DNA of 64,000 nucleotides from Gammaproteobacteria bacterium (GCA_965277405.1 OZ255726.1:1568001-1632000), one strand, 5' to 3'. Counted from the first letter of the stretch, positions 1-48,300 are shown. The notes: a model not told the origin generated them from the letters alone. Made by a program: numbers and translations.

Positions 1-1
1 A

Positions 2-3000
2 GATTGGCAGGGCATTGCTGGGCGCAATTTTGCTGACGCAGCCACCTTGCAAAACAGCAATCAAGCCAACAGTGTTTGGCTCTACCGCAGTTTAGGGCGT
101 GGTTTGCGCGCCCATGCTTTTGGTAATAAACTATTGGCAAGTAACGCCAGCCAACAGCCAAATAGTTTCGACGCGGTCACCCAAACTCACACAGCAACAG
201 CTCCACAGCATTTAGCAACAGCTCCATATGCCCCATTGCTGCAAGATTTAGACACCGCCGACCAAGCATTGCAGCGTGCTAGTGCCACCAAGGTAATCGA
301 CGTCGGCTATATCAATCCAGCACAAGGCAAAGTAACAACCACCAATGTAATGCGCGCAGCAACCGATTATTCTGCAGATAGCACTAGCAACCTTGGGATG
401 AAAGGCCGCTACATTCTTCTATATAAAAACCGCGGTCCAGGCGCGTTTATGCGCCTCAATGAAATAGACGTCATGAGTAATGGTAATGACATCAGCGACC
501 GCATTCAACGCAATGCTGTAGATGGCGCAGGGGCTAGTATTAAATTGTACAGTGGTCGACAAAACTGGACAGAATACACGAATAAAAATAGTTTAATGCT
601 ACAAGAGTATAAGCTCGACCCAAGTATTGGTGATAATCCTAGTCCAGCACAGTTAACTACGTTGGATGATAACAACGAATTAGCGATGGAAACGCTGATA
701 GACGGTACTAATACAGCCGTTACCAATGCTGCCAATGATCCATATCAGTGTGCAGCTGGTAATAACCGGCTTTCTTCTGGCATATTAATTAACAACGATC
801 TTTCGCATGGCATACCACATAATACAGCTACTATCGATCAACCCCAGCACCATTGGTTTATGTATGGATCCAAGCGCAATGGCTCGAACACTCCAAATAT
901 CCAAACCACCTCAAGCTACGAAGTAACAAATGTATTGTTTGCCTATCCTGCGGCGATAGGGGCTGATAATCCATATGACTACATTCGCACATATGGCATG
1001 TGGATTCAACTCGACTTGGGCAAGGTTATGCCCATCGATTATATTGATCTGTTTGCCAGCTGTGGAGCAGAAGACGCCGCCGCTAATTTTGCAGGGATAC
1101 AAATATTTGTTGCTGAAACCACTATGGTGGATTTAAGCAAAGATACTGCGAGCCACATTCAGCAAGTCCTTGGCTTAGCTGCAGCAACAACAGCGTATTC
1201 AGTCACGGTTAAACCATTCGCAACAGCCGCGGCGGTGACAGTTGCCAATAACAAACAACGTTTCTACGCATCTGATTTTCGCAATCCAAATAATGCAACC
1301 AATTTATACAAACAATTTGCAACAACAGCTGGAGTAGTAACACCGCTGCAATTGTATTTGTTTAACGGACCACTGCAGGCATATGCCATGCAAAACCCTG
1401 TGATAGCGGAGTTGTTGTATTTCCCAAGTTATACCCATCAAGCTGCCAACAAAAAATATATCAACAGCTATTTAGCCATGAAGCATGGCAGTTGGCATCA
1501 TCCGCAGTTTTTTGGTGAAGCTGGGATAATAAGTAGTGCTGATAGCAGCGTATATGCATTTGCAAACAATGCCAACTATCTGCGTGCCACAGCAGCTGCA
1601 ACTGACGACACCTTCTCACACAATTTAATCGTCCTCGGCAATGACCCAGGCTATCAGTTTATCCGCAATGCCGGCGCAGCCTTGGTCGAAGACGGCAGTT
1701 ACAACCCGTTAACGGTAGAATTATTAGCCCCTGCACCCGCGTATGCATTTATTGCGATTGCTGATGATGACGGCAGCCCAGGTCGCGACATGACCGACTA
1801 TGTCAATACAAGAAATGGCAACGACATATCCTATGACGTACCACGCCGCTGGCGGATACAACGCACTGCTAATTCACCGGCTTTCAGGCTAAAGTTTGCA
1901 TTACCTCCTTTAATTGCCGCTAAAGCAGTCAGCGCACAAGTTATCCGCAGTCACTCAAATTCTACCCCAATCCGTATGTCACTGGTGGGCAACGTTGCCC
2001 AAACCGATGATTTTGCTAGCGCACTCAACGGCGACCTCACCGCAGAGTTTACCTTTGCATTTATATTTCAAAACGACAGCCCAATCCAAACAAACAAGAT
2101 TAAAGCTATCAAAATCGATGCGGATACCAGCCGTGTATACGTTAGCGACGAAACGATAATTATTGACGTGGAATATACAGAGCCATTGCAAGCTGCCGCA
2201 TTTTTGAATTCAACCAGTTTGCAATTGCAAATTGGCGATGCAACAGCTGATATAAGCCAGGTTGAGTTGCTCAGTTACCGCAACACCTTGCGTTTTAGCT
2301 ATACGGTTCAACCTAGTCATCGCGATGCTGATGGCATTACTGTTAAGCAACTGATCCCAGGCACCATGAGAGATGCCCAAAATCTGGCGCTAGATACCAC
2401 ATTGATCGCCAGCGAGGGTACAGCCAGAGTAAATGGTAGTACTGTTGGGGTAGCATCGATACGATTCATCGCACCAGATCCAGAAATTTTACAAAACGGT
2501 GCCGGATATTCCAATGTTGGCAACGCTAGCATCCAAGTCTTACTCAATCAACCCAGCTCAAGCGCACAAATCAAGGTGTATAACAACGCTACATGTACAG
2601 GAGCAGCAGCAACACATAACCTTACCTCCAAGCAGCGCAGCCATATTATAACAACAGCTAGCAATACCACGCCTGGCACAACCCAATATTCTTTTAAGGT
2701 AGCACCAGCTAACGACTTAATGGGTGACACCGCCTGCGCAGCAACCATATTGAGCTATGTGTATGAAACTACCAAGCCAGATCTATCTGGCGATGTCGTC
2801 GTCAGCGACCCAGTTCTACCCAACCAAGCAAGAAATAATTTTATAGGGCTGCGCCTCAAGCTACAGTTTAATGTTCCAGTCTACAAAAATAGCGTAACAC
2901 TCGATAATTTACGCATTAAAACTACCATACCAGCTAATCCGTCAACTGAGCACTTTGCCGCTGATGATGTGTTGACATGGATTACAACAGCTAACTCCAC

Positions 3001-6000
3001 AGCTAAGCTAGCGCAGACCGCCTATATCACCATCGGCAGGCAAACAACATTGCCCAAACAAGCCACAATTCAATTCGCCGACCCCACACTAGTTATAGCG
3101 AGAAATGGCGCGAGCAACGACGCGAACGAAATAGCAGCACAGCTTGGCTACGACCGCCTAGCTCTGCATATAGGACCAGTCGCAGCTAGCGTCAATGTGA
3201 TTGAGACTGAAGCCAATAAGATCAATAATGGTCATACTGCGTATGGCATCGTTGGCAATAGTGTATACGACAGCGGTGATAGATTTGAATTGCTATTTGA
3301 TACATCATTTGACGGTTTGACCGGTTTGACCAGTTTAACTGACAACCAACACATCCAAGTATTACGCCAAGGTGATTCAGCCGCCAGCTTTGCAAGCGCA
3401 GCTACCGCAACCCATAACAACAATACCAACAAGATTACCATTACTTTAGCGACTGACTCACTCCTACCAAATGATACAATAATCGTTAAAAAAGCAGTAT
3501 TTGGCGCTGGTGTGGCATGGGATGACGCAATATTTATTGTCCCAGATAAAATACAACCAGTGTTGCTAACCGCCAATATATACAACCCCAATGGGACTGC
3601 AAACCCGTATACAGCAGGCAATGCCATTGTACTGGGCTTTAGTGAACCGTTGCGGCTTGTTCAAGATGTAACTGCAGATGCTTTTCAAATAAAACCACTG
3701 AATCAAATCTTGGATTTTAGTGTTGATACCAGTCCAGAGACATTGGCTAAAGGACAAATTCGCTTAGTAATCAATACAACTCAGAATATAACTGCAGTGC
3801 CTACCATAGCTGTGCGACATTCCATGACGACAAAAATCACAGATAACGCTGGCAACCCTTATCTATACCTGAAACAAACGGGTAGCGCTGGCAACAGAGC
3901 TATAGAACATCGATTACCAACCTCAAACGTTCCTCATATAGGGAATATGACCATAAATTCTGGCACCTATACATCTGGCGATACCCTCACTTTAGTTATG
4001 ACTTTCAACAAGTTTGTTCGTCCATCGCGTACAGCAGGTAGAGGAACTGTTACTTTAACTATTGGCGGTAAAGATGTATTGCTGTATTACGTTGACGGCA
4101 TACCAGATGCTAACAACTCGTTTGCCCTGACAAAAACAGTGGAATTTGCTACTGTTGTTTCTGGCATGATAGACCTAGACGGCATCAGTTTGCAGGCAAA
4201 CACTGATCGACAATTTTATAACGACAATCCTACTGGATTTTCGATTGGTGGCAATGCACTTCATGCTATCTACCCCGCGCAGGACTTTCCAGGCGTCAAA
4301 ATAAACGCACCATTTCGTATTGGCAACGGTGTTGCTATATGGCTTGACTCAGCAGACCTCGATGCTGACGGTACCCGTGATGCGCCACTCGGGTTTAATG
4401 GTCTGAGTTATATGAAGTATGATAAGGAAGGAACCAGAAAATATGACATTACCAATGATGACCTGCCAGAGAGTTTGCAAGTCAACCATTTTGATGATAT
4501 GCGCGCTGTTTGGCGCAGCAAAGCTGCTGCCCCATGGGATGGGCTGTATGTGATCAATGGAGCTGACATGAGGCCGCCTGGTAATATTGAGGGTAAAAGC
4601 AGATATTCAGGGCGGTTGCGCGTTGGTCAACATGTTTGCCGCAATGAAACTCCGGGAATAACACCTGGTGATAACGAAGGAAGTTCTAGAGGAAGTAGTT
4701 GCGCTGAGGTTAAAAAATACAATTTGTATGTTGGTGAAATGCGTCTTGCACCGCTGAGTCATGAAATCCAGCAAAATTATTTTAACGGGCTGCCGGTTAT
4801 CGGCGCGGTACCAACAGAACCTGATTCAAAAGCAATTGCTCGTAATTCAGCTGGGTATATGCAGCATCTGGCCTCAACAGATAGCTCAATATCGATTGCT
4901 AATTATCAACCTAACCGTCTCTACACAGATACACGGGTATGGTCTATTTTTGATAAAAAACTAGAAGCAATAACCGAATTAACGCTGATGGGCTTAATTA
5001 AATCTATCCCAAGATTTATCCCTACTCCAGCAGGTAGTGGAAGGAATGCGGCAGACAACTATAACGCTATTTTTACTACTAGATTAGCTGCGATAAAAGG
5101 AATCTTTCTAGGGTATTTATATGATTCAAATCAAGTAGACCAGAATTTTAATACCTATAATTTACTGATAGGGTTTAGAGGGCAACGTCCAGGGTATAAT
5201 ATACGACCACTACTTGGTGAATTAACGAATGTCAGCAGCAATCAGCGATCGGGATATGGAAGCGATGAGGATGTCAGAGCCACACAGGTTATTCCTAATA
5301 TTACCGAGCCGACATTGATGGAAGCCGTATTAGCTCTTGGTAATAATCCAACTCGTTTTCAAATGTATTATGGCGGCAGACAAAACTCTAACTACGGTAG
5401 CAGCAATTCAAATTTAACTTCATATACTAGATCTTCAGTATTTGCTTCAACCAGTATATCGCCATCCAGGAGAACTCCCTACGACCCGCATAAAGCACCA
5501 ACTATAGATCCTTTCAGTACCGCGTATTATCCTGAAGTACTGTATTACAGCAGAGTGCTAAGCCAAGCTGAACGCCTAGTCGTACGCAACTACCTGAAAG
5601 CCAAGTGGGGGCAGCTTGGTTCTATGCCCAGTGGCAAGCAAACCAATGGCTGGAATGGCGATTTTACCAGCGATGATAAATATCGCTTTGACCCAACCAG
5701 CGATACTGCTAATGATATTAGCTCATTTCGTGAAAACGTTACGGGTATTGTCAATATGACACCACCACCAGACTTACTACCAAATCGAGGAGGAGCAATA
5801 CAAAATGTTACTGACGACACCAGCAAAGTAGCTGTTGCGCAAACCGAAGATGGCGTTGTTGCCATACAAGACAATAGCTTTTTGCTTGACCGTGGCGATT
5901 CAATTTTTATCGGCACCAACCATTACCAGCCAACCAAAAGGTTGATGACACAGGTGAATGATGCGTACCGCAACATCGGCAAAGTATTCGACTATGTCTG

Positions 6001-6469
6001 GGCGATGGATATTCGCGATTTAACAACTATTAAAGATGGCGGTGGCGTTTCTATTATTGTGGATATTAGCAAGATTGTGAATGCAATTGATTTAGCGTTG
6101 CTGCAGCAAGCTGCTGAATTTGATGAAAATCATGGCAATATTGTGTATTCATTTAGCGAAGATATCAGCGCGGATACCGCTACCTCGCAACTCATTGCCA
6201 AGAAAAATAATGTGTATTTGCTTGGCGCTGCGGACTCAGGCACCTACTCCATATCCGCACTATCTGAACCTATGATTAGCTCGTACCAACGCATTGCCAA
6301 AGCCAGCAGCTATATGGTGGAAATAACGGCAGATAACAAAATAGTTGCTATTTACGTCTCTTTTAACAATTTAAATGTAGATACGGACCGTCCATTTACC
6401 GATTTACAACAAACGCTTAACACAGGTTTTTATCGCGTCAGTATTGGTCTGCCTGGCATTTTTGAATGA
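2..6469 (+). CDS. Giant secreted/surface adhesin-like protein, 5'-truncated by the window edge
   Basis: Frame is open from base 2 (no stop before the TTG at 47). Rich in T/A/N/S. Contains a discoidin/F5-8C-like motif (WIQLDLGKVMPIDYIDLF), Ig-like beta repeats and two related LamG-like segments (ELLYF...INSYLAMKHG; EVLYYSRVLSQAERLVVRNYLKAKWG). Confidence 0.7.
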   Translation, partial: DWQGIAGRNFADAATLQNSNQANSVWLYRSLGRGLRAHAFGNKLLASNASQQPNSFDAVTQTHTATAPQHLATAPYAPLLQDLDTADQALQRASATKVIDVGYINPAQGKVTTTNVMRAATDYSADSTSNLGMKGRYILLYKNRGPGAFMRLNEIDVMSNGNDISDRIQRNAVDGAGASIKLYSGRQNWTEYTNKNSLMLQEYKLDPSIGDNPSPAQLTTLDDNNELAMETLIDGTNTAVTNAANDPYQCAAGNNRLSSGILINNDLSHGIPHNTATIDQPQHHWFMYGSKRNGSNTPNIQTTSSYEVTNVLFAYPAAIGADNPYDYIRTYGMWIQLDLGKVMPIDYIDLFASCGAEDAAANFAGIQIFVAETTMVDLSKDTASHIQQVLGLAAATTAYSVTVKPFATAAAVTVANNKQRFYASDFRNPNNATNLYKQFATTAGVVTPLQLYLFNGPLQAYAMQNPVIAELLYFPSYTHQAANKKYINSYLAMKHGSWHHPQFFGEAGIISSADSSVYAFANNANYLRATAAATDDTFSHNLIVLGNDPGYQFIRNAGAALVEDGSYNPLTVELLAPAPAYAFIAIADDDGSPGRDMTDYVNTRNGNDISYDVPRRWRIQRTANSPAFRLKFALPPLIAAKAVSAQVIRSHSNSTPIRMSLVGNVAQTDDFASALNGDLTAEFTFAFIFQNDSPIQTNKIKAIKIDADTSRVYVSDETIIIDVEYTEPLQAAAFLNSTSLQLQIGDATADISQVELLSYRNTLRFSYTVQPSHRDADGITVKQLIPGTMRDAQNLALDTTLIASEGTARVNGSTVGVASIRFIAPDPEILQNGAGYSNVGNASIQVLLNQPSSSAQIKVYNNATCTGAAATHNLTSKQRSHIITTASNTTPGTTQYSFKVAPANDLMGDTACAATILSYVYETTKPDLSGDVVVSDPVLPNQARNNFIGLRLKLQFNVPVYKNSVTLDNLRIKTTIPANPSTEHFAADDVLTWITTANSTAKLAQTAYITIGRQTTLPKQATIQFADPTLVIARNGASNDANEIAAQLGYDRLALHIGPVAASVNVIETEANKINNGHTAYGIVGNSVYDSGDRFELLFDTSFDGLTGLTSLTDNQHIQVLRQGDSAASFASAATATHNNNTNKITITLATDSLLPNDTIIVKKAVFGAGVAWDDAIFIVPDKIQPVLLTANIYNPNGTANPYTAGNAIVLGFSEPLRLVQDVTADAFQIKPLNQILDFSVDTSPETLAKGQIRLVINTTQNITAVPTIAVRHSMTTKITDNAGNPYLYLKQTGSAGNRAIEHRLPTSNVPHIGNMTINSGTYTSGDTLTLVMTFNKFVRPSRTAGRGTVTLTIGGKDVLLYYVDGIPDANNSFALTKTVEFATVVSGMIDLDGISLQANTDRQFYNDNPTGFSIGGNALHAIYPAQDFPGVKINAPFRIGNGVAIWLDSADLDADGTRDAPLGFNGLSYMKYDKEGTRKYDITNDDLPESLQVNHFDDMRAVWRSKAAAPWDGLYVINGADMRPPGNIEGKSRYSGRLRVGQHVCRNETPGITPGDNEGSSRGSSCAEVKKYNLYVGEMRLAPLSHEIQQNYFNGLPVIGAVPTEPDSKAIARNSAGYMQHLASTDSSISIANYQPNRLYTDTRVWSIFDKKLEAITELTLMGLIKSIPRFIPTPAGSGRNAADNYNAIFTTRLAAIKGIFLGYLYDSNQVDQNFNTYNLLIGFRGQRPGYNIRPLLGELTNVSSNQRSGYGSDEDVRATQVIPNITEPTLMEAVLALGNNPTRFQMYYGGRQNSNYGSSNSNLTSYTRSSVFASTSISPSRRTPYDPHKAPTIDPFSTAYYPEVLYYSRVLSQAERLVVRNYLKAKWGQLGSMPSGKQTNGWNGDFTSDDKYRFDPTSDTANDISSFRENVTGIVNMTPPPDLLPNRGGAIQNVTDDTSKVAVAQTEDGVVAIQDNSFLLDRGDSIFIGTNHYQPTKRLMTQVNDAYRNIGKVFDYVWAMDIRDLTTIKDGGGVSIIVDISKIVNAIDLALLQQAAEFDENHGNIVYSFSEDISADTATSQLIAKKNNVYLLGAADSGTYSISALSEPMISSYQRIAKASSYMVEITADNKIVAIYVSFNNLNVDTDRPFTDLQQTLNTGFYRVSIGLPGIFE

Positions 6470-35629: not shown

Positions 35630-36685
35630 GGCAACTCACAAAAACCCTACTAATCTGTCATAATGCTCTAACTATTGTTTTTGAGAATTGATATGCAGCA
35701 AATGACGTTTATAGAGTTGGAATACCCACATAAGCAACGCAAAACCCGTAGAGCAATATTTCTTGAGAAATTAGCAGCTGTTATTCCATGAAAGTAGTTA
35801 AATGAAGTTATCGCCAAACACTATACTAAAACTGCGCAAAACAGGCGGTCGACCGCAATATCCACTGTAAAGCATGCTGCGCGTACGCGTCATGCAAGTA
35901 GTGTATAATTTCAGTGATCCTGCGATGGAGGATATATTGTACGAAGTCCAATCAATGCGGCTGTTTGCTCGTTTAACCCTCGACAAAATACCCGACGAGA
36001 CCACCATCTTGAATTTCAGAAGATTGCTGGAACAGTATAACCTTTGTGAAAAAATATTCTTAAAGATAAGTAAACGGCTCACTAACCATGGATTATTACT
36101 CCGCGCAGGCAGTATCGTTGACGCATCAATCATCAATCATCAATGCGACCAACAACAACCTAAGAATTAACAGCAAGCCCGTAATCCAGAAATGCAGCAA
36201 ACGAAGGAAGGGAAAGCAGTGGTATTTTGGCATGAAAGTTCATGTTGGTGTTGATGAAAGTTCTAGAATGATTCATAGCTTTGAAACCACGGCGGGTAAT
36301 GTCAACGATGTGACCATGACTGATAAGCTCTTACATAGGGAGTGGACAGCAGCAGCTTGAGAAATTGAAAGCCAGTGTCCGCGCCAAAGTTGAGCATGTA
36401 TTTTTTTATATGAAGCACATGTTTGGATATAACAAAGTCAGATATCGTGGCTTAGCAAAGAATACCAACCGACTATACATGCTAGCTGGACTTACAAATC
36501 TTGTACGCAGTTACAAGTATTTGCCGCAAACACAGGGTTAGTGCGTCCAAAACATAGGAAATTCAGCAAAAAAGCATGAAAAACAATAAAAAGTGAACAA
36601 AAATAGCTTTTCAGCTTTTGACGTTATCGTTTTTGTGTATTGATGCGTCGAGAAAAATAATAGTAATTAGTTAATTAGAGTTTCC
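35630..36685 (+). mobile_element. Degenerate IS5-family element (transposase pseudogene from 35693)
   Basis: MQQMTF..RKTRRAIFLE, IPDETTILNFR, IVDAS, WYFGMKVHVGVD and KASVRAKVEH with stops and frameshifts; right end GTTAATTAGAGTTTCC. Confidence 0.9.
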
Positions 36686-36885
36686 TTAACTTTGAATGCA
36701 AAACCATGCAACAATCAGTCAAATCGGCGGTACTCTGCCAACTTCAGACAGGTTGTGTCTATGTTCAGATTTGAAAAACTCAAAAATCGGAAGTGTCACT
36801 TAAAAATATCTATATTTTATGTTTTTATTGACATGTAAGATATAAAATTATAACTTGTCATCTAATTACATTAAAAACATAATTC

Positions 36886-37767
36886 ATGGAAGCAAAACCT
36901 TTTTTAAAATGGGCAGGAGGTAAAACTCAATTAATTAAGCAAATTAAAGTACAACTACCTGAAAACATAGAATTAGAAAATTTCACGTTTATAGAGCCTT
37001 TTGTAGGAAGTGGTGCTGTATTATTTTGGATGTTTAGTTATTTTCCAAATTTAGAAAGAGCTGTTATTAACGATATTAATGCTGACCTAATAAACTCATA
37101 CTTAACAATCAAAAATAATGTACAAGAATTAATAAATACCCTTGCTACTTGGGAAACTGAATACCATAATCTCGTAGATGATCAAGACGCAAAAAAAAAA
37201 TATTATTACGAAAAAAGAGCTCTTTTTAACACTCGTAATTCTGAGCAAACCACACAAAGTGCTTTATTTATTTTATTAAATAGAACTTGTTTTAATGGAC
37301 TTTATAGGGTTAACCTTAAAAATAAATTTAACGTGCCAATGGGGGCTTATAAAAAGCCTCAAATATGTAATACAGAAAACTTATTAGCAGTTTCTAAAAT
37401 TTTGCAAAAGGTTGATATTTTAAACGGGGATTTTTCTGAAACACTTCCGTATGCAACTAAAAATACATTTTTCTACTTCGACCCACCATATAAACCATTA
37501 AGTGAAACTTCAAGTTTTAATTCTTATGCAAAGGACAAATTTAATGATGCCGAACAAATAAGATTAAAAGAATTTTGCGATGTATTAAACGAACAAAATC
37601 ATCAATGGATTTTAAGCAACTCTGATGTAAAAGGAAAAGATCCAAATAATAATTTCTTTGATGACTTATTTGCAAATTTTAATATTATTAGAGTAAATGC
37701 TCGTAGAAGTATAAATGCAAACCCAAATAAAAGAGGTCGATTAACTGAGTTGTTAATTAGAAATTAA
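36886..37767 (+). CDS. Dam/DpnM-type DNA adenine methyltransferase
   Basis: KWAGGKTQL, EPFVGSGAV, NRTCFNGLYR, YFDPPY and LSNS motifs. Confidence 0.93.
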   Translation: MEAKPFLKWAGGKTQLIKQIKVQLPENIELENFTFIEPFVGSGAVLFWMFSYFPNLERAVINDINADLINSYLTIKNNVQELINTLATWETEYHNLVDDQDAKKKYYYEKRALFNTRNSEQTTQSALFILLNRTCFNGLYRVNLKNKFNVPMGAYKKPQICNTENLLAVSKILQKVDILNGDFSETLPYATKNTFFYFDPPYKPLSETSSFNSYAKDKFNDAEQIRLKEFCDVLNEQNHQWILSNSDVKGKDPNNNFFDDLFANFNIIRVNARRSINANPNKRGRLTELLIRN

Positions 37768-37770
37768 TCT

Positions 37771-38703
37771 ATGAAAAAAATTACTCAAATATTAAATCTC
37801 AATTCAGACAATGAGTTTTTTGATTATTTCAAGGACAATTTAAATTTAAAAGGAATTACTCAATGGAGCTATTTTGTGAATTGGGAAAAGGTATATAAAA
37901 ATGTTGTTCCTTTTGAAAAAGAACTAAACCTCTTAAATATACTTATAGGTAAAGAAAACATACAACAAGAATTAAGCAATTTAATTTTAGAATATCCTAA
38001 AGTAGTAAACGCTATTCCTTTACTTTTAGCAATTCGGTTTAAAAACAAAAAAGAACAAAAAATCAACATCTTAATCAATACTGTTTCTTATCAATACGAC
38101 AATTTTGATCTCTCTGTTGAAACACCCGATCAACAAGAAGCAGAAAACATTGCTACGTTATTTGTAAATACAGGTTTAGGTGAACTTGTTAGAGATAAAA
38201 AAATTAAAAACTTAGTAGATTTTGCAACAGGAGTAGAAGTTGGTTTAGATAGCAATGGTAGAAAGAACAGAGGTGGGCATCAAATGGAAAATTTGATTGA
38301 AGGTTATATTCAAAATGTTTGTAAAGAACAGAATTTACCATATTTAAAAGAAGCAAATGCTAAAGCAATTAAAGAAAATTGGAATATAGATTTAGAAATA
38401 GATAAATCTTCACGTAGAATTGATTATGTAATCAACAAAAATGGAAAACTTTACTTTTTTGAAGTGAATTTTTACAATGGAGGCGGATCAAAACTCAAAT
38501 CTACTGCTGCGGAATATGTTAAAATGAATGATTACTGGAATAAACAAAATATTGAATTTATATGGATTACAGATGGTGCTGGATGGCTAAAAACGTTATT
38601 ACCATTAAGAGAATATTTTGATAAAGCAGAGTATTTATTGAATTTAGAAATGTTAAAAAATGGTATTTTAAAAAAAATATTACTTATTGGTCTGAAGACT
38701 TAA
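37771..38703 (+). CDS. DpnII/MboI-family type II restriction endonuclease
   Basis: YFVNWEKV, GVEVGLDSNGRKNRGG, EVNFYNGGGSKL and FIWITDGAGW motifs. Confidence 0.92.
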   Translation: MKKITQILNLNSDNEFFDYFKDNLNLKGITQWSYFVNWEKVYKNVVPFEKELNLLNILIGKENIQQELSNLILEYPKVVNAIPLLLAIRFKNKKEQKINILINTVSYQYDNFDLSVETPDQQEAENIATLFVNTGLGELVRDKKIKNLVDFATGVEVGLDSNGRKNRGGHQMENLIEGYIQNVCKEQNLPYLKEANAKAIKENWNIDLEIDKSSRRIDYVINKNGKLYFFEVNFYNGGGSKLKSTAAEYVKMNDYWNKQNIEFIWITDGAGWLKTLLPLREYFDKAEYLLNLEMLKNGILKKILLIGLKT

Positions 38704-38730
38704 ATTTTTTAATGCAGTAAAAAGTATTTA

Positions 38731-39594
38731 ATGATAAAACCCTATTTCAAATCAAAAGACAAAAAATTCTATCTTCTAAAAGGAAATACAATAGATTTAT
38801 TGCCAAAAATAAACCATAGGTTTGATATGGTTTTTGCAGATCCCCCATATTTTTTATCTAATGATGGATTATCAATACAAAACGGTCAAATAGTTTCTGT
38901 AAATAAAGGAAAATGGGACAAATTTAAAGATTATAATTCTGTGAATGATTTTAACCGAAAATGGTTAAAAGAAGTAAGAAAAAAAATGAAAGAGGATGCC
39001 ACTATTTGGGTCAGTGGCACTATGCATAACATCTTTAGTATTGGTCAAATTTTAACAGAATTAGATTTTAAGATTTTAAATATTATTACTTGGCAAAAAA
39101 CGAACCCACCACCAAATTTTTCGTGTCGCTACTTTACCTACTCTACCGAACAAATAATTTGGGCAAGAAAATCTAAAAAAGTTTCTCATTACTACAATTA
39201 TGAGTTAATGAAACAATTAAATGGAAATAAACAAATGAAAGATGTTTGGCAATTACCTGCAATTGCAAAATGGGAAAAATCATGTAAAAAACATCCAACA
39301 CAGAAACCACTGTCTGTACTTACAAGAATAATAATGGCTTCTACCAAACCCAATGCTTGGGTTTTAGATCCATTTGCAGGAAGTAGCACAACTGGAATTT
39401 CAGCTAATTTAGCATATAGAAGGTATTTAGGAATAGATCAAGAAACAGAGTTTTTAGAAATAAGTAAAAACAGAAAATTAGAAATACAAAACGAACAAAC
39501 TGCTGAAGCATATAGAAAAAAAATAGGCGGTTTTAATACTGAAAAAGAGTTTGTGAATTACTTGAAATCTGAACCTAACCAGGCCCATCTATAA
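38731..39594 (+). CDS. DpnA-type (beta class) DNA methyltransferase
   Basis: FADPPYFLSN, WQKTNPPPN, HPTQKP and LDPFAGSSTTG motifs. Confidence 0.93.
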   Translation: MIKPYFKSKDKKFYLLKGNTIDLLPKINHRFDMVFADPPYFLSNDGLSIQNGQIVSVNKGKWDKFKDYNSVNDFNRKWLKEVRKKMKEDATIWVSGTMHNIFSIGQILTELDFKILNIITWQKTNPPPNFSCRYFTYSTEQIIWARKSKKVSHYYNYELMKQLNGNKQMKDVWQLPAIAKWEKSCKKHPTQKPLSVLTRIIMASTKPNAWVLDPFAGSSTTGISANLAYRRYLGIDQETEFLEISKNRKLEIQNEQTAEAYRKKIGGFNTEKEFVNYLKSEPNQAHL

Positions 39595-39909: not shown

Positions 39910-40120
39910 GTCTGAATTCCTTATTTGGAGTATTTAGCTTTTATGATTGCAATAATGTAATAACATTACATTATTGTAGAGTCCAACCAAAAATTAAGTT
40001 TAGTGAAATAATATATCGGCGTCATCGGTGCTATGCAGGTGATTGTTCAGATATAACTGCTTGTTATTGAGTTTTTTTACCAGCGCCAAATAAGGCCAAC
40101 CGCCAGCGCAAATGGCCGCT
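39910..40120. repeat. ~210-bp direct repeat, copy 1
   Basis: Near-identical to 40498-40707 from GTCTGAATTCCTTAT to CAAATGGCCGCT. Confidence 0.93.
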
Positions 40121-40496
40121 ATAAGGTGATGACAAAGTCGGGAATATTGCTGGAAAGGGCCGCATAAAGCTGGGGAAAACACCCCGCCTGCACACCATCG
40201 ACAGTATCTTTTGGTGTGACCTCGCCGCTTCCGCATTGTTCTAAGGTGCCATAGGCCATGTTGCGCCGAACGGCGCACTGGTCGCAGATCATGAGCAGGA
40301 TGTTTTGCTCCAGGGCAATTGCGGCGAGCCGTTCACCGATCGGATCACCCTGCCGTAGACAGAACATATTGTCGTCGAAGAAGAACATGCCAGCAATGGC
40401 CGCCCGGTGATTGCCCGCTTCGAGTTGCGGCAGGATCATTGTCCCTAGCTTGAATGTTGAGGCCATGTCGGTGGCGAAAATATATGCGATCTTCAT
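40119..40496 (-). CDS. SaoD/DsrE-family sulfur-relay protein
   Basis: MILPQLEAG, GMFFFDDN, ICDQCAVRR and GCFPQLY motifs. Confidence 0.75.
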   Translation of the reverse strand: MKIAYIFATDMASTFKLGTMILPQLEAGNHRAAIAGMFFFDDNMFCLRQGDPIGERLAAIALEQNILLMICDQCAVRRNMAYGTLEQCGSGEVTPKDTVDGVQAGCFPQLYAALSSNIPDFVITL

Positions 40497-40497
40497 T

Positions 40498-40707
40498 GTC
40501 TGAATTCCTTATCTGGTGTATTTGGCTTTTATGATTACAGTAATGTTATAACATTACATTATTGTAGAGTCAACCAAAAATTAAGTTTAGTGAAATAATA
40601 TATCGGCGTCATCGGTGCTATGCAGATGATTGTTCAGATATAACTACTTGTTATTGAGTTTTTTTACCAGCGCCAAATAAGGCCAACCACCAGCGCAAAT
40701 GGCCGCT
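40498..40707. repeat. ~210-bp direct repeat, copy 2 (upstream region of the SaoD/DsrE gene)
   Basis: Contains the RBS-like AAGGAA on the - strand and a perfect palindrome. Confidence 0.93.
40539..40556. promoter_or_regulatory. Perfect 18-bp palindrome GTAATGTTATAACATTAC, likely GntR-family operator
   Basis: Self-complementary; the core TGTTATAACA fits the GT-N-TA-N-AC pattern of HutC-subfamily GntR sites; about 45 bp upstream of the ATG. Confidence 0.6.
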
Positions 40708-40901
40708 GCGCGAGATATCGAACACTATCCTATATATTGGCAGCACCGGCTGTCAATACCGACGCATCGCCAAGACACAGGAATCAATAATCGCTTTTTT
40801 ACAGGCTCGGCTTGGTATCGCATCCATCGACCAACAGCTAGATTTGCCGCAAAATTGAAATTAGCTGATGTCTGAACAACCTCCGTAGCATTTACACTTA
40901 G

Positions 40902-41185
40902 GGAAGCTCTGATTAAGTCGCTGATGGAGCGAGTTCGCTAGAAAATTATGATGATTGCACGGAGCGGCTTGCGTCTGTATGCCGTAGCAATACGGCAAAA
41001 ACCGCAACACAGCAAGTACCGCTTGTAGGCAAACCATCATATATTCAATAGAAGGACGGGAAAAAACGCTGCGCTAACGTCGTTGCAGCACTTGATAATA
41101 CCACCAGTGTTATCTGCGCACTGCGTCTAGTTATCATCAGCGTTTTTTCTCCGTCTCGCCCATCATGGACTTAATCAGAGCTTCC
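40902..41185 (+). mobile_element. Complete MITE copy
   Basis: TIRs intact; TTAG duplication at 40898-40901 and 41186-41189. Confidence 0.93.
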
Positions 41186-41213
41186 TTAGCGTTGTATACT
41201 TTACCTTCCCAAT

Positions 41214-41617
41214 TCAATAAACGATATTTTTTTTCTTTACGCTGTAGGGGATACAGCGCGGATGTGGCTGGTTTAAGAAAACCAATGGCAATGTGCGAAC
41301 ATTGGCTGCGCTAGTAAGCAGCAGGGCATACAAGTATTCGTTCCAGTTTCCAAGAAACATCATAATACCTGCAGTGAGGAGCCCTGATTTTACCAAGGCA
41401 GATTAATTTTGTTAAAAACCTCCCAGAAACTGGCTCCCTCGATATAAGCGGTTTCGCTCAAAAAATGCGGAATGAACATGAAGGTTGTCCTCAAAATAAA
41501 AATTGAAATGACCATACCAAATGAAAGACACACAAAGATCAGCTCAACTCTGGTATCGAAGAGACCCAAGACGTTGATCAAGGAAAATATGGGTTGGGCC
41601 TTGGGATGCACAGTCAC
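41214..41617 (-). pseudogene. Carbohydrate ABC permease fragment
   Basis: EAA-loop-like ETAYIEGASFWEVFNKINLP and FLGNWNEYLYAL...RTLP split over two frames; the N-terminal half is missing. Confidence 0.75.
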
Positions 41618-42960
41618 TAGGAGGGTAATGGTGAAGGTAATCTAATGATATTTATTTTTCTCTTCTTCAGCATCCAAACAAACATTGCGTATGTAAGCAG
41701 GCTATCAAAGCCTATCCCAACACCAAACATGATAGCAATTAACTGCAGATTTGGAGTATAAATTCCAAACTTATATAATATAAATAGAGTTCCATAAAAT
41801 ATAGTATTAACTATGATAGACTGGAACAGCATATAATTAGATTTACCAATACCATAAAAAATACTGTCTATAACATTATTAAACGCAAATAAAATGTAAA
41901 ACAAAGTAGAAACCAAAACTATCTGATAGACATCTTTGTAGTTAGTGACATTCATAACATTTTTAATAAAAAATGTCCAATAAGGCAATGTACAACACCA
42001 GATTAACACGATTGCTCCACTTATAGTAAAGTACCCTAGAGTTCTCAGTTGGATCGCATCGTTCCCATACTCTCCACAGTCTTGCTTCACAAGTTGCCCT
42101 AGCTGAAGCACCGGCCATAACAGCCATCCCCAGATAAAACTGTTGGCAACCCAAAAAGTTCCAGGTTCACCTACAATATTAACCATTTGGAGAACCATTA
42201 ATATAAAAGCTGCATTACGTACAAGGCTTTCTAATCCAGAGTAACCACCTACCTTTAGCCATTCACGCATCCAGTTGAAGGATAATTTTTCATTAAAATC
42301 AATATTAAACCCTTCATTTTTTAAGAACAAAACCATTACAAATAATAAAATTATGTTCGTTATAATGTTACTGATAGCAATCCCTGTAACGCCTAAATCA
42401 AGTGATATAGGCAATTTTGAAACCAGAAAAGTATCCGTAAATACGGATAAAATCATTTGTAATACAAGGAACATGTATAAACACTTATATTTTTTTGTTA
42501 TTATAAGAACAAGCAGTAAAAACTGGACAACCGTAAAAAAAATCGATGCTATTGTTTCAAGTCGAATATAGTTTACTGTGACAGAAACAAGCTCATCCTT
42601 TTGCGCCATGAATACTGTTAATGGTTCAGTAAATAAAATTATGAAAGTTGAAATAAAAGCATATACCCCAAAAGTAACTATCATTCCTGTTTTTACTTTA
42701 TTTGCTAGTTCAATTTTATTTGATAAAGATTTACCCATAAGATAAAATAAAGGTAGCATTATTGCTTCCTGTAGCACCTCATATATTACATTTACCCAAG
42801 CCAACTGACTTGCTATATTGAACCCCCAATCTGTTGGCAAGTCTCCCAAAAAGTAAATTCGTACTGTTTTATATATTGTTGGGATTATACCAATAATCAT
42901 AAGAGCAGCTAAAAGCCTGAAATTAATCTGCTTTAATGAAATTTTTATACTTGTTAACAT
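41617..42960 (-). CDS. MATE-family efflux transporter
   Basis: About 12 hydrophobic segments, LGVTGIAISNII motif; AT-rich DNA. Confidence 0.75.
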   Translation of the reverse strand: MLTSIKISLKQINFRLLAALMIIGIIPTIYKTVRIYFLGDLPTDWGFNIASQLAWVNVIYEVLQEAIMLPLFYLMGKSLSNKIELANKVKTGMIVTFGVYAFISTFIILFTEPLTVFMAQKDELVSVTVNYIRLETIASIFFTVVQFLLLVLIITKKYKCLYMFLVLQMILSVFTDTFLVSKLPISLDLGVTGIAISNIITNIILLFVMVLFLKNEGFNIDFNEKLSFNWMREWLKVGGYSGLESLVRNAAFILMVLQMVNIVGEPGTFWVANSFIWGWLLWPVLQLGQLVKQDCGEYGNDAIQLRTLGYFTISGAIVLIWCCTLPYWTFFIKNVMNVTNYKDVYQIVLVSTLFYILFAFNNVIDSIFYGIGKSNYMLFQSIIVNTIFYGTLFILYKFGIYTPNLQLIAIMFGVGIGFDSLLTYAMFVWMLKKRKINIIRLPSPLPS

Positions 42961-43334: not shown

Positions 43335-44897
43335 TTATGGTGTTTCGTTAAAAATAACTCGCATCCCAATAGATGGTGAGCGGTGATATGCTGGTGCTTT
43401 GGCGATGTAGTCAATCCGTGCTCCTGTGGCGCCATCAACAACATAATTGCCACCTTTAACGACCAAAAAATAATCGTTTCTGCCAACCACAATTGAGCTG
43501 GTCCATTCAGAGACATTTCCTGCCATTGCAACAACGCCGTATGGGTTGACATCGTTGCGGCGATCATCTACCGCTAATGCCTTTGAATATGGAGCGCGGG
43601 AAACCACCAAAGCAGCATCAAAGATATTGCCCCATGGATATATGGTTGTACTGTTTGCTGCAAAAATGGCAGTCCACTGTTCTTGGGTAGGTAGCCTGCC
43701 GCCGGCCCAGCGTGCAAAAGCATCGGCATCCCACCAACTAATACCAGTTACTGGGGCATGAAGTTGGCTGAGTTGATTGCTCCATCGTGCTGGTGTGTAG
43801 TCATGGTTTGCAGGTTCTTTGGTGTTCGCATAAAACCCAAATGCTACCAATGGGTCACGCATGAAAGATTGATATTGAGATACTGTGATTTCATATTTTG
43901 AAATAACGAATGCTGTTGCTGGCTGATTTGGATGAAAAATATCTTTGATAGCTGCGTAGTCGGCTTTACGCAAGCCGCGCAGCATTGGCGGCAGCTTGGC
44001 TTGATCTGGCACTCCAAGCGTTACCGTTTTCGATGGTATAAATCGTGTCGTAGTCTCGCCCCATGGGGTGGGTTTGTCGGCAGCAGCAGTCGGCGGATAC
44101 ACGCAGCGAAACCCAACAAATTGTGAGCGAAAGTTTTGAGGAATTTGGCGGCGAATAAACCGTAGTGCGTGCAAAGAAGCTGGTTTACTCGCTCCATTGG
44201 CCCCCATTATCATCGATTGGTTCGTCCATTCAGAAACTCCAAAACCCATAGCTTGCACGCCTTCTGCGGTTGCCATGGTGGGGTAAACTGCGCAACTTTG
44301 TCCAGCATTTAACAATGGATTGGAAAACCGCCACGGCATGTTATTAAAGGTGTTTCCCCATGGGTAGATGCGGTCATCATTGCTGGCGGCAATTGCTTCC
44401 CATTCATCAGCACTTGGCAGCCGTCCTGCTGCTGCTGTACAATATGCCTGCGCATCGTAATGGTTTATTCCTGTGACTGGTGCGTTGCTTTTTCCAAGAA
44501 TTTTATGGGCTTGATAATCACTTTTCGGCTGCCAGTCAACAGGTGCCTGTGCTGGTCTCCATTGCTGTTGCAGATTATACAAACTCATATATTGCGCAAA
44601 TTCAGCGAATTTACTTTGGGTAACGGGGCATTGATCAACAGATATTGGCGGACGCTGGAACTCAGCAGCGCTGGGCTGTAACAATAGCGTGTCAAATGCA
44701 CTGCTGCGCTGTAGATATGCTAATTGTTGCATCAACACAGTATCAAGCGGGTGTTGCTGTGGTGCTGTTGCTGTGAGCGCGTTGATATCAATACGTTCGA
44801 TTTGTCGTGCGCTAATCCGATACTGATACATGGAAAATATCAGTATCACTACCATCAAACTTAAAAATAATATTGAAGAAACTCGTCGGATTGCCAT
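43335..44897 (-). CDS. Membrane-anchored protein with two FGE-sulfatase (SUMF1-type) domains
   Basis: Twice PVTGI...DA.A...GRLP...W, YPWGN, VSEWT and GFRC/GMRV; the catalytic cysteine pair is not visible. Confidence 0.85.
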   Translation of the reverse strand: MAIRRVSSILFLSLMVVILIFSMYQYRISARQIERIDINALTATAPQQHPLDTVLMQQLAYLQRSSAFDTLLLQPSAAEFQRPPISVDQCPVTQSKFAEFAQYMSLYNLQQQWRPAQAPVDWQPKSDYQAHKILGKSNAPVTGINHYDAQAYCTAAAGRLPSADEWEAIAASNDDRIYPWGNTFNNMPWRFSNPLLNAGQSCAVYPTMATAEGVQAMGFGVSEWTNQSMIMGANGASKPASLHALRFIRRQIPQNFRSQFVGFRCVYPPTAAADKPTPWGETTTRFIPSKTVTLGVPDQAKLPPMLRGLRKADYAAIKDIFHPNQPATAFVISKYEITVSQYQSFMRDPLVAFGFYANTKEPANHDYTPARWSNQLSQLHAPVTGISWWDADAFARWAGGRLPTQEQWTAIFAANSTTIYPWGNIFDAALVVSRAPYSKALAVDDRRNDVNPYGVVAMAGNVSEWTSSIVVGRNDYFLVVKGGNYVVDGATGARIDYIAKAPAYHRSPSIGMRVIFNETP

Positions 44898-46658
44898 TTA
44901 TTGCGCAAGTATTTTACGGCTATTATTCATTGTATTTCCAAACATGATGAAGATAAGAATCAGCGTAATTGCAATTCCTAACACCACATACAGCCATGTT
45001 AAATGGCTGGAATTGCGCTGTTTAGTAATGTCTGTAAATGCACTGGTCAGCGGTATTCCGTCAATCCGCACTTGGTTGACATCCGCAGGTATTTGCAGCG
45101 TACCGTTGGCAAAACCCGCAAAAATATATCCTAGAGTAACCTGTGCCATCGTTGGGTCGAATATCGCAACCGCACGCCAGCTCTGAGTTGTGTTGCCAAG
45201 GTCATCTGGATGCATCAACATAAAATAGTTGTCATACACAGGAATACGCTCACCACGATGAACATAAGGATACAACCGCAACAATACATCTGGTTTGCCT
45301 GCGCCCAGTTGTTGCCAGCTGCCAGTTTGCAGCGGTTTGCCAAGTAATGTCATGGTATGCAACGCTTGATTTGCTGGTACTTTATATATCAGCGGCGGTG
45401 ATGATTCTGATTGCAAGACTTCAATCGGCAAAGACGCTGCTGCGCTTTTTTGGGTGTTGCGCAGTACCAGCGCCATGCTTTTCACCCAGTTAGCAAGATG
45501 AAACTTCTGAATTGAATCTGGGTTTATAACAATCCTTGCAAGGAGCTGCTGCAGCTGTTTATAGTCAAATCCGCGTTGTAATTGGGCTGTTTCGATAGCT
45601 TGGAGTAAATACGTCAGCATCACTATTTCGTATTGCTCTGGTGGGATTTCTAATATTGTTTGCGGTGCACCGCTTGGTTGTGCAGGCGCATCTAAGTTTG
45701 GCAGATTTACCGAAAATTGGCGACGCTCATCTTGCGTTGATTTACCATTGCGCTGTTCATCAATCTCACCAAGGAGTTGCTCAAACAATGCTTGCCCACG
45801 GTTTTCGCCAGCGTCGAGTCCAGCAAGCTGTGGCTGGCTGGCTGCTGCGCTTTGACCATCGCCATCGCCCTGTGCTGCGGCACTTGCTGCGTGTTGTTCG
45901 ATGTTCGCCGGTGGAATAAGCGAATCATCTTCCAGAGCATTAAATGCATTCGGGTCAACGGCAGATGTTCCAGTTGGTAGATTAGCTCCGGCTAGATGGG
46001 TTTGACTGGTGCTACTGCCATCAGCTGCACTTTCTCCAGTTGTATTTCCAAGTTGTCCTGCTGCTAGTTGTTCAGCAAATGACTTGTTATCACCAATGCT
46101 TTGCTGGCGTGATGGAGGTGTATGCAATTCTCCAAGAAAATGCCAATGCCACAGCGGTGCGTTATGTTCGCGTAAAATGGAAATAGCTAAATAAAACATC
46201 GATATGTCGTATACATCAACGCGGATATTATTCACAAGCGTTGCATCCCATGTAGATATTAGTGCGTCAAACCGGTTGTCAGTTTGTTGTTGCAAGCCTG
46301 TCGCAGTAAAAATACTGCCGCTATTAAACTCACGAACAAACCCTTTATGCAGCTCGATGATCGGGTACAAACTCGGTTGGCAGTCGTGAGGAATCGAGCA
46401 ATCATGATAGTTGTGCAAATACGCAGGTTTGGAGCTTGGCAATGCATTCATCACCACAGAGTCGCTTATTTTTCTGGCCATAAGGATATTAAAATCCACC
46501 GCTGTGTTTATTTGTTCCTCTGCTTGTTGCTGTTTGATGGTGTATGACAGGGTGATTAACACCAACATCACCGCAACACTATTCGCCAAAATATCAGCTA
46601 ATGCAACGCCACCGCTGCTTAGCCAGTGTGATTTGTTACTGTGGCTGCGCCTAGTCAT
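44898..46658 (-). CDS. Hypothetical protein with MotB/ExbD-like N-terminal TM and a C-terminal TM
   Basis: LADILANSVAVMLVLITL (Asp in TM), CSIPHDC motif, long low-complexity linker, C-terminal hydrophobic helix. Confidence 0.65.
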   Translation of the reverse strand: MTRRSHSNKSHWLSSGGVALADILANSVAVMLVLITLSYTIKQQQAEEQINTAVDFNILMARKISDSVVMNALPSSKPAYLHNYHDCSIPHDCQPSLYPIIELHKGFVREFNSGSIFTATGLQQQTDNRFDALISTWDATLVNNIRVDVYDISMFYLAISILREHNAPLWHWHFLGELHTPPSRQQSIGDNKSFAEQLAAGQLGNTTGESAADGSSTSQTHLAGANLPTGTSAVDPNAFNALEDDSLIPPANIEQHAASAAAQGDGDGQSAAASQPQLAGLDAGENRGQALFEQLLGEIDEQRNGKSTQDERRQFSVNLPNLDAPAQPSGAPQTILEIPPEQYEIVMLTYLLQAIETAQLQRGFDYKQLQQLLARIVINPDSIQKFHLANWVKSMALVLRNTQKSAAASLPIEVLQSESSPPLIYKVPANQALHTMTLLGKPLQTGSWQQLGAGKPDVLLRLYPYVHRGERIPVYDNYFMLMHPDDLGNTTQSWRAVAIFDPTMAQVTLGYIFAGFANGTLQIPADVNQVRIDGIPLTSAFTDITKQRNSSHLTWLYVVLGIAITLILIFIMFGNTMNNSRKILAQ

Positions 46659-47194
46659 TGGCTGGGATCATGCAAAATTGTTGTGCGGATAGAGCGCTTG
46701 ACCTCTGCTGGAATTTCATCCAGATTGATGGCTTTGAGCAGTTGCTCATTGGCAATAATCCAGCCGATTACTATAGGCTGTCTGCCAAGTACCGCCAACA
46801 TGCAGTTCCTTGCGATTGCCATGGTGCCAACCCCACCTTCGGTAATCGCAAAAATCAATTGCGATGTTTGCTTGGAATATATTTGTCTAATATAGTTTAC
46901 AAATGCACTGTTGGGCAGACAAATTTTATCGGGTGCTACCGAGGTATTTTGCTGCAAAATTTGCAAATGATCGGCGAACGTTAACACTACAAACCCTTCG
47001 CTGCCGTTTTCCCATGAAATCCTATACGCGCTTTCTTCGCTGGCATCATCTAGCATCGCGGTAATTTCATTATCGGTAATGGCATTCATCAACACCAATA
47101 GAATCAATAGCAAGCCAAACGCACCGCCGAATATTTCTACCATTGGCACGTTGATTGAGTCACGAATACGAATAGAACGTTTTGGCGTTCTCAT
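46655..47194 (-). CDS. Hypothetical ExbD/TolR-like single-TM protein
   Basis: Basic N-terminus then INVPMVEIFGGAFGLLLILLVL (Glu at the ExbD Asp position). Confidence 0.65.
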   Translation of the reverse strand: MRTPKRSIRIRDSINVPMVEIFGGAFGLLLILLVLMNAITDNEITAMLDDASEESAYRISWENGSEGFVVLTFADHLQILQQNTSVAPDKICLPNSAFVNYIRQIYSKQTSQLIFAITEGGVGTMAIARNCMLAVLGRQPIVIGWIIANEQLLKAINLDEIPAEVKRSIRTTILHDPSQ

Positions 47195-47202
47195 GTGCTA
47201 TG

Positions 47203-48300
47203 TTACTTGCTGTTATGCATTAGTGATCTGCTTTTGAATAGTTGCTCAGCATCTGACAAGTTGCGGTCTTCCCAACGTTGAAATAACGTTTGTACCAGCA
47301 TCAATACAACAGAAAGTGTCAAGGCAACAAGTGTGGTATCAAAGGCAATACCTAATGGTGATATTGCCGCACCTAGCCCCGAGCTGAGGCTGGTTTCACT
47401 CGTTGAAATAATTAAACCAATGCTTTCAGCTGCGAGTGAAATCCCCAACACCGTGCCAATAAATCCTAGAATAGGAATCGACCAGTTGATATAGCGTGGG
47501 ACGGATAAGAAAAAATCTGCCTTCTGCCACGCTAGATCAAATAGTCGCTCTACTGATTGTGCGGTGCTGTCGCCTTTTTTTTGCAATGCAAGATATGCTT
47601 GTACTAGCACCGCAGTATTGATATCAATGTTGAGTTGATCAGCAGCAAATATTTTTTTCCACTCGCTTTGTAACTGCAACCACTTACCAAGGAACAAGAA
47701 AATTGCCCAAAAAAACATCACTAAAATAATCGGTGGAATGACGCCACGTTGCACCAGTTTTGTGTGCAATATTGCAGCAAAAGGTTGTTCTGCAAATACC
47801 ACCAATACCACCATAACAATGCTGGTTAATAGCACCGACACACACACTGGCAGTGCTAATGAAGGACCTGCAAATAACCCATGCAGCAATGTCGACGCAT
47901 CGAGTTGCTCATCTTGTTTGACCAGCTCAAGCTGCATCACGCGCAAACACGCACTTAATCCCAGAGAAAAAATAAGTGTCGTCATATGAGCTGGTAAAAA
48001 CACCTTTCCTTGTGAAAGCCATTGGTATAAATTGGTAAAGGCAACTGCAACGGTAATGAATAATACTACGGTACCAACTGTCATGTTTAAGTGAATAATT
48101 CGTTGAGTCGGGCCTTGAGAAAGCCCAAGCATTGGGGCAATAGCAAACGCAGCACCAATACACGTGCCGACATAAAAAAAGTTTGGTTGTAAAATCCAAC
48201 CAAGACCAGAAAGGGCTGCGATGTAAAAGAGTATTGCGAGTAAGAAAATGAGTCGCGTCATAGTTGTTAGACCGTCAAAAAAAGGCAGTATCATATACAA
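47203..48300 (-). CDS. MotA/TolQ/ExbB proton-channel family protein with extra N-terminal TMs
   Basis: IPILGFIGTVLGI and LGIAFDTTLVAL channel helices. Confidence 0.85.
   Translation of the reverse strand: MYMILPFFDGLTTMTRLIFLLAILFYIAALSGLGWILQPNFFYVGTCIGAAFAIAPMLGLSQGPTQRIIHLNMTVGTVVLFITVAVAFTNLYQWLSQGKVFLPAHMTTLIFSLGLSACLRVMQLELVKQDEQLDASTLLHGLFAGPSLALPVCVSVLLTSIVMVVLVVFAEQPFAAILHTKLVQRGVIPPIILVMFFWAIFLFLGKWLQLQSEWKKIFAADQLNIDINTAVLVQAYLALQKKGDSTAQSVERLFDLAWQKADFFLSVPRYINWSIPILGFIGTVLGISLAAESIGLIISTSETSLSSGLGAAISPLGIAFDTTLVALTLSVVLMLVQTLFQRWEDRNLSDAEQLFKSRSLMHNSK

Follow-up and report, generated by a model that had tools for sequence, protein, structure and literature searches.

A four-gene cassette encoding a predicted ExbB/TolR-type motor with two unlike B subunits and a tandem FGE-fold partner in marine bacteria

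The cassette described here lies in a 64,000-nucleotide stretch of a Gammaproteobacteria bacterium genome (GCA_965277405.1 OZ255726.1:1568001-1632000; referred to below as the window), and consists of four tightly packed genes, numbered 1 to 4, whose positions and predicted features are collected in Table 1. The original prediction, made from the sequence, described them as an operon for an ion-driven motor with an ExbB-like channel, two ExbD/MotB-like partners and a tandem FGE-domain protein. Its spacing of the genes agrees with the coordinates of the open reading frames (ORFs): a gap of 8 bp separates genes 1 and 2, genes 2 and 3 overlap by 4 bp, and the gap between genes 3 and 4 is 0 bp. 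The start of gene 1 is uncertain, with either the TTG at 48300 or an alternative in-frame ATG at 48261. The source genome (G000) is a single contig of 2.17 Mb, 98% complete, and carries the cassette in single copy.

Table 1. Cassette genes and features predicted in their products, in positions of the window.
Feature	Position	Strand	Description
Gene 1	47203-48300	minus	365 aa, TTG start; A subunit, MotA/TolQ/ExbB family (from PF01618, transmembrane scan and alignment)
Gene 1 pore residues	47332-47454	minus	T283 (GFIGT); D321-T322-T323 (AFDTT); invariant 29/29
Gene 2	46655-47194	minus	179 aa; predicted TolR/ExbD-like B subunit with a single transmembrane helix
Gene 2 transmembrane Glu20	47135-47137	minus	VEIFGG; Glu in 33/36, Ala in 3
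Gene 3	44898-46658	minus	586 aa; predicted second B subunit with tail and second transmembrane helix
Gene 3 transmembrane Asp22	46593-46595	minus	LADILAN; invariant 24/24
Gene 3 TolR-like region	46131-46415	minus	residues 82-176; H82, H171, H173 invariant 24/24
Gene 3 linker	45729-46127	minus	residues 178-310; pLDDT <50; candidate built-in tether
Gene 3 C-terminal part	44937-45641	minus	helical bundle and beta domain 340-540, confident model blocks; second transmembrane helix ~552-574
Gene 4	43335-44897	minus	520 aa; membrane anchor and two non-catalytic FGE/C-lectin-fold domains

Gene 1 matched PF01618 (E = 1.1e-5, 25.6 bits, cut-off 22.9), supporting the channel that had been predicted, and a sequence search of the PDB returned no match. 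Hydropathy averaged over the alignment gave eight transmembrane helices, five N-terminal extras followed by the three-helix ExbB/TolQ core; the predicted six or so extra helices thus hold when counted beyond the two pore helices, and become five over the core. T283, D321, T322 and T323 were invariant in the 29 aligned sequences (all alignments exclude near-duplicate and truncated rows), and the FDTT motif was present in each of the best 120 homologues from a database search in which 8,000 candidates were scored and 554 proteins retrieved. The ExbB-like and MotA-like proteins of G000 itself have threonines at the aligned positions of T283 and T323, and equivalent threonines line the ion path of ExbB, TolQ and MotA, according to section 8 of PMC12204202. 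D321 is specific to the family, being Asn in three aligned sister-type proteins, whereas the double threonine is also found in the ExbB-like protein of G000, and therefore does not decide the coupling ion.

The acidic residues predicted in the N-terminal transmembrane helices of genes 2 and 3 are both present (Table 1), and among distant gene 2 representatives that include the helix Glu20 was kept in 13 of 14, as read by eye. No significant Pfam or NCBIfam match was obtained for either protein, PF02472 included, and PDB sequence searches yielded nothing for gene 3 and noise only for gene 2. The predicted model of gene 2 (pLDDT 77) continues past the helix with three strands, a helix, a strand, a helix and a strand, and the same topology was seen in residues 100-174 of the gene 3 model. 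Compared with 48,161 chains, both models placed E. coli TolR (5by4) first, gene 2 with Z 7.7 (root-mean-square deviation 3.2, 82 residues aligned) and gene 3 with Z 7.3 (2.1, 72 residues aligned), with a lead over the next row of Z 1.2-1.3 for both. Another TolR stood at rank 3 for gene 2, for which ExbD reached Z 4.7, and a structural-fold check of the B subunit gave an Atlas ExbD lead of 0.76. Since the same family topped both rankings, the transmembrane acid is of the ExbD type and a PF01618 gene adjoins, the TolR assignment was accepted, and both proteins are predicted to carry TolR-like periplasmic folds behind an acidic transmembrane helix. The ExbD-like half of the earlier description is thereby retained, while the MotB-like half is withdrawn, because the OmpA domain is absent.

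Within gene 2, C92 and C131 form a probable disulfide. The model of gene 3 places H171 and H173 on the last strand (residues 171-174) of the TolR-like region; column conservation falls from 0.5-0.67 ahead of the linker, which is predicted to be disordered, to about 0.25-0.3 within it, and the second transmembrane helix that had been proposed was recovered. No clear structural match was obtained for the C-terminal domain, which was searched only within the whole-protein model. Two proteins that appear to join genes 2 and 3 (P0154 and P0160) are possible assembly or frameshift artefacts and were not used.

Gene 4 has one transmembrane helix at residues 6-24 and the PF03781 stretch twice (E = 1e-44), and its PDB sequence matches were FGE, PorK/GldK and TvpA, a protein of a diversity-generating retroelement (DGR). 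The catalytic cysteine motif was absent in an alignment to human FGE, which bears out the earlier view of a membrane-anchored protein with two FGE folds that lack the catalytic cysteines. Conserved cysteines occur only at 90, 153, 202 and 265, plus a variable position in the transmembrane helix; C153 and C265, present in 23/23 sequences, form a probable structural disulfide. A His was found in the anchor region of only three of the 23, at no fixed position. The protein scored 20.5 bits against the GldK equivalog (cut-off 350), and its transmembrane anchor has no conserved lipobox. A role as a DGR target was rejected, as no template repeat in G000 exceeded 53 bp or was better than E = 0.018. 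In one clade (L004, L006, L007, L008, L011, L012 and L027) the genes directly upstream of the cassette are a glycosyltransferase-sulfotransferase gene and a second one that looks sulfotransferase-like on visual inspection. This arrangement is probably one ancestral placement, and gene 4 may bind a sulfated glycan.

A contig search with the gene 2 alignment retrieved 24 loci from other genomes; a search with a single gene 3 sequence gave no match. The order 1-2-3-4 was found in 20 of the 24, two loci ended at contig edges and two carried gene 1 elsewhere in the genome, indicating by the order kept in the 20 that the cassette is not a chance grouping. In a class-wide sample, whose carriers overlap the 24 loci so that the counts are not additive, gene 2 was detected in 13 of 400 genomes, strong gene 1 matches in the same 13, gene 4 in the same 13 of 401 and gene 3 in all 13; the co-occurrence elsewhere that had been proposed as a test was thus observed. 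The gene 1 profile separated the carriers (E <= 3e-91) from all others (E >= 9e-26), and a second tier of weak matches to it was the sole match in 37 further genomes, of which one, G038, is unpublished and supports no claim here. One carrier, G126, keeps all four genes at separate sites (347, 1120, 1174 and 1960 kb), suggesting that their products depend on one another, and another, G317, retains the cassette in a genome of 1.5 Mb. Clustering of all ORFs from 27 loci revealed no conserved fifth gene. Pairwise distances correlated between the cassette genes (Spearman 0.54-0.72), in a sample where kin are not independent.

By family, and judged on gene 2 alone around search centres that were chosen as carriers, the cassette was found in every genome tested of f228 (19/19), f233 (5/5), f62 (5/5) and f127 (1/1). 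Four named carrier records all came from sponges, of three host species, and one of them is a Myxococcota (supplement of PMC8163846), indicating that the cassette crosses phyla. One title among the other 20 named records suggests a sediment or vent source. The carriers are marine bacteria that include sponge symbionts, with sponge origin looked up for four of the 24 named records. The gene 2 family is small, with 41 clusters (50% identity) reaching E <= 0.001, a few of them spurious, and its distant relatives are labelled Hyphomicrobiales and Bacteroidota.

The third-position GC content (GC3) of the cassette (0.39-0.47) matches that of the core (0.41 +/- 0.06 for 857 genes common to G000 and G317), whereas that of a restriction island in the window is far lower (0.18-0.22), indicating that the cassette is a long resident outside the island and that the restriction genes arrived later. 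The immediate neighbours are bolA/DUF3108 (bolA upstream) and a MATE pump. The direct flanks hold no nuclease gene, as had been noted, but a DpnII system lies 3.7 kb downstream. There, IS5-like transposase fragments are followed by the low-GC DpnII-type system (window 35874-39594), which comprises a D12 methylase, the DpnII nuclease and an N6/N4 methylase, is recent, and is unlinked to the cassette at other loci. Immediately downstream of the cassette (window 40119-42960) lie a SaoD/DsrE-family gene and the low-GC MATE gene, for Na+-driven efflux, a pairing with the cassette that is not kept elsewhere.

The cassette was compared with each of the described motor systems. For Ton, no TonB_C domain was found in genes 2-4 and no conserved transmembrane His; TonB-dependent receptors were matched in nine of the 13 carriers, the other four (93-100% complete) giving no match, and G000 has its own ExbB and TonB genes at ~863-867 kb, apart from the cassette. 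For Tol-Pal, tolA, tolB and pal are not linked to the cassette, and TolB occurs elsewhere in 5/5 carriers. For the flagellar motors MotAB/PomAB, PF00691 (OmpA-like) is absent from genes 2-3 and flagellin from 5/5 carriers, and the sheath gene of type VI secretion (T6SS) had no match in 13/13. For Zorya, ZorA scored 14.8 bits against a cut-off of 100, PADLOC matches to the ZorA profile were weak (E 0.005-0.19), and the ZorA tail, an OmpA domain and a conserved effector gene were not found. Because carriers can be without TonB receptors, T6SS and flagellin, the cassette is not a Ton, Tol-Pal, MotAB or Zorya system, as the original prediction had anticipated; of the functions it put forward, the results speak against uptake driven through receptors, coupling to T6SS and flagellar motility, and make defence less likely.

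An unlinked partner was sought by comparing G000 with G317. Matches in G317 were found for 858 G000 ORFs, 118 of them exported-looking, and no partner was identified among 20 ORFs scanned with Pfam (18 of the 118, one other shared and one giant), the rest being judged by eye among the entries listed. Known families were assigned to 18 of the 20. The remaining two, L142 (G000:C1 2152804-2153427) and L148 (688038-688838), are predicted to be exported, are common to G317 and matched no Pfam family at E 1e-4.

Judged from sequence comparison, the cassette is a sister lineage of a predicted TPH-vWA motor, with the common plan of one A subunit, two B subunits (B and B') and an FGE protein; a TolQ-like motor with paired TPH-vWA proteins is predicted in section 8 of PMC12204202. 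Sister operons scanned with Pfam at two loci (L044 in G051 and L049 in G063) encode a lipoprotein, a PEGA-FGE protein, a MotA-like protein and two vWA proteins with an acidic transmembrane helix, and both genomes also carry the four-gene cassette. The likeness lies in the A subunit, which is the closest paralogue of gene 1 in searches, in the heterologous axle pair with acidic helices, and in the co-operonic FGE protein. The cassette differs in having TolR-like heads and a doubled FGE fold, and in lacking the vWA domain (absent from genes 2-3, though present in the sister loci), the periplasm-spanning coiled-coil stalk, PEGA repeats, the lipoprotein and a TPR gene. The words 'FGE', 'formylglycine' and 'sponge' are absent from the main text of PMC12204202.

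TolQ-TolR(-TolA) and ExbB-ExbD(-TonB) likewise combine a PF01618 A subunit with pore threonines and a B subunit with an acidic helix and TolR-like fold, whereas the cassette adds five extra helices and an invariant pore Asp to its A subunit, two unlike B subunits, one of them long-tailed with a second transmembrane helix, and an FGE-fold partner, and has no TonB, TolA, TolB or Pal. A further comparison system shares one A gene and two unlike TolR-like genes; the cassette is without a vWA transducer, a conserved transmembrane His and a TPR gene. Myxococcus AglRQS also has one A and two TolR-like B subunits, and the heterodimerization of AglQ and AglS is treated as an open question in PMC9389320; the cassette differs by the tail and second transmembrane helix of gene 3, by an acid in gene 2 that is dispensable in some lineages, and by having no linked Glt partners. 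GldK/GldJ (PorK), TagR and FGE/SUMF1 resemble gene 4 in their non-catalytic periplasmic FGE fold, and GldJ/GldK couple to the GldLM 5:2 motor (PMC9389320); in the cassette, by contrast, the domains are in tandem on an inner-membrane anchor beside a MotA-family motor, and its tested carriers gave no T6SS sheath match. ZorAB and MotAB/PomAB share a MotA-family channel with an Asp-bearing partner, whereas the cassette is without an OmpA-type domain, ZorA tail, ZorC/D/E and flagellin. No description of the four-gene cassette was found in the literature searched, the coverage of which was thin for subscription papers and excluded the supplements of PMC12204202.

Other MotA-like genes were observed in the same genomes. 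At L045 (G000:C1 ~1145500-1152900), in a genome without flagellin, a TPR protein, a 670-aa membrane protein with FliG domains, MotA, MotB-OmpA and a MoxR/vWA module lie together, and in G051 (L050:5658-7489) another divergent MotA-like gene is followed by a single-helix coiled-coil protein with a WPSFTD motif.

The cassette is inherited as one unit, and we propose, with a probability of roughly 40%, that it forms an ion-driven inner-membrane motor of the 5:2 type, which acts on the envelope via a tether and the FGE protein. The motor architecture itself, with five gene 1, one gene 2 and one gene 3 subunits (5:1:1), is probable; an envelope role, once that architecture is granted, is about evenly balanced. 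Five A subunits enclose two B helices in 5:2 motors (PMC9389320), and here five copies of gene 1 would surround an axle of genes 2 and 3, a 1:1 heterodimer being favoured because the two unlike B genes are strictly co-retained, one with an invariant acid. H+ or Na+ may pass Asp22 of gene 3 and the Thr ring of gene 1, turning the ring against the axle, with Glu20 of gene 2 as a dispensable ion site. Since the pore fits two helices only, the second transmembrane helix of gene 3 would sit outside it, and a flexible linker would connect the axle with an anchoring point beyond the ring, which the extra helices of gene 1 or gene 4 may provide. Rotation could then wind or tension the 130-residue linker, which would replace TonB/TolA and make a separate transducer unneeded. 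ExbD is thought to pull TonB in a comparable fashion. Gene 4, non-enzymatic and probably ligand-binding, would grip the load. Peptidoglycan or some other polymer of the periplasmic envelope is the most likely load, because every part has its anchor in the inner membrane, the gene 4 stalk is short and no outer-membrane partner was found near the cassette or in the comparison of G000 with G317. In one clade, at five loci (L015 and L021-L024), M23 peptidase/bactofilin genes flank the cassette on one side and a SPOR-domain gene on the other, and these neighbours, together with bolA in the window, weakly fit a cell-wall load. Such a motor would serve to maintain or remodel the envelope of a host-associated cell.

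Several observations weigh against this proposal. The TolR matches of genes 2 and 3 are moderate (Z <8), Foldseek returned nothing at E <= 0.001 for the two models, and the profile-profile match between the two proteins is weak (probability 4.5%). The presence scores are inflated, as carrier genomes contributed to the profiles, leaving the absences and the score gap as the informative part, and related sequences among the carriers are not independent. Gene 2 was found in one of 16 genomes of f52 and in none of 17 of f241, so that the cassette is dispensable in related lineages. The cell-wall neighbours are confined to a single clade, with unrelated neighbours in the others, and Tol-Pal is already present in carriers, where a second envelope motor would need a distinct job, none of which was identified.

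The alternatives were ranked with the export of giant adhesins as the main one, followed by defence, by gliding or channel roles, and by uptake. The first, which we consider unlikely, holds that the motor drives very large adhesin-like proteins out of the cell or onto its surface, and that gene 4 resembles the ring or track made of GldK/GldJ in type IX secretion. He_PIG repeat proteins were found in 12 of 18 carriers, a count from carriers only, and G000 encodes repeat-rich predicted lipoproteins of up to 9,566 aa that are shared with G317; the PorK/GldK matches of gene 4 and the coupling of GldJ/GldK to GldLM point the same way. Six of the 18 carriers, however, gave no He_PIG match, G000 has a secretin and thus probably another export route, the anchor and GldK score of gene 4 are unlike those of GldK, and no pore gene is linked. 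One of the giant repeat proteins occupies the start of the window (1-6469), where the end of a 9,036-aa ORF enters it, and more are found at G000:C1 1-24440, 137509-148891, 596925-625625 and 1533625-1574469. The set spans 1,100-9,566 aa; several members have lipoprotein-like starts, and the single one scanned contains He_PIG repeats, an S8 peptidase and a P domain.

Defence or damage sensing, in which phage, toxins or host effectors would act on the FGE domains to trigger a Zorya-like ion channel or motor, appears still less likely. It is favoured by the weak ZorA matches, by the DpnII system of the window and DNA methylase-family genes near five loci, and by the lone f52 copy, present in one of 16 genomes and flanked by Vsr and PIN genes; FGE-like proteins are also reported as immunity proteins of T6SS and as parts of TagQ/TagR damage sensing. 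That f52 copy, in G051, ends about 840 bp past glmS (L003:5651-6490) and has the PIN and Vsr genes at its opposite end, which is consistent with a recent transfer. Tn7-type elements insert past glmS. Against defence stand the low ZorA score, the lack of a conserved effector gene, OmpA domain and ZorA tail, the absence of the T6SS sheath gene and the later arrival of the restriction genes. In addition, fixation throughout families and retention even where its genes are dispersed set the cassette apart from most defence systems.

Two further roles are improbable to a similar degree. A gliding or surface-motility motor would match the layout of AglRQS, one A gene and two unlike TolR-like B genes (PMC9389320), and the absence of flagellin from the five carriers; however, no Glt, AglZ or adhesin-like partner is conserved near the cassette, the Glt genes having been searched in linkage and not genome-wide, and the comparison of G000 with G317 gave no outer-membrane partner. 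A gated ion channel or transporter rather than a rotary motor, regulated from the periplasm and possibly through a metal site formed by the three invariant histidines of gene 3, would agree with the extra invariant Asp in the pore helix of gene 1, its five extra helices and the loss of the gene 2 acid in 3/36; but the Thr/Asp pattern typical of 5:2 motors is retained. A Ton-like energizer for uptake via outer-membrane receptors, suggested by the ExbB- and ExbD/TolR-type core and by the receptors of nine carriers, is very improbable, and as an obligate role it is largely refuted by the four carriers without a receptor match, the missing TonB_C domain, the separate ExbB and TonB of G000, and the rarity and shifting position of His in the gene 4 anchor.

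In its fullest form, the envelope motor proposed above would represent a 'winch' class of 5:2 motor, with a self-tethered axle that needs no transducer or outer-membrane partner and a double lectin-fold grip, a core symbiosis machine fixed in unrelated families, passed between phyla in sponges and working for life in the animal; this extended version is doubtful. The cassette is likely an undescribed variant of the ExbBD/TolQR type, characterized by an asymmetric axle of TolR-like subunits, a predicted tether built into it with a further membrane anchor, and a partner with tandem FGE domains. The known motors of the MotA/ExbB type each serve a process of their own, whether flagella, uptake, upkeep of the outer membrane, gliding or defence against phage. 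With four genes in 5 kb, the cassette is easy to express and solve, and it would test whether a heterodimeric axle with one essential acid runs a 5:2 motor, a question that applies to AglRQS too. Its fixation across families, together with its occurrence in two phyla among genomes obtained from sponges, makes it a candidate symbiosis factor.

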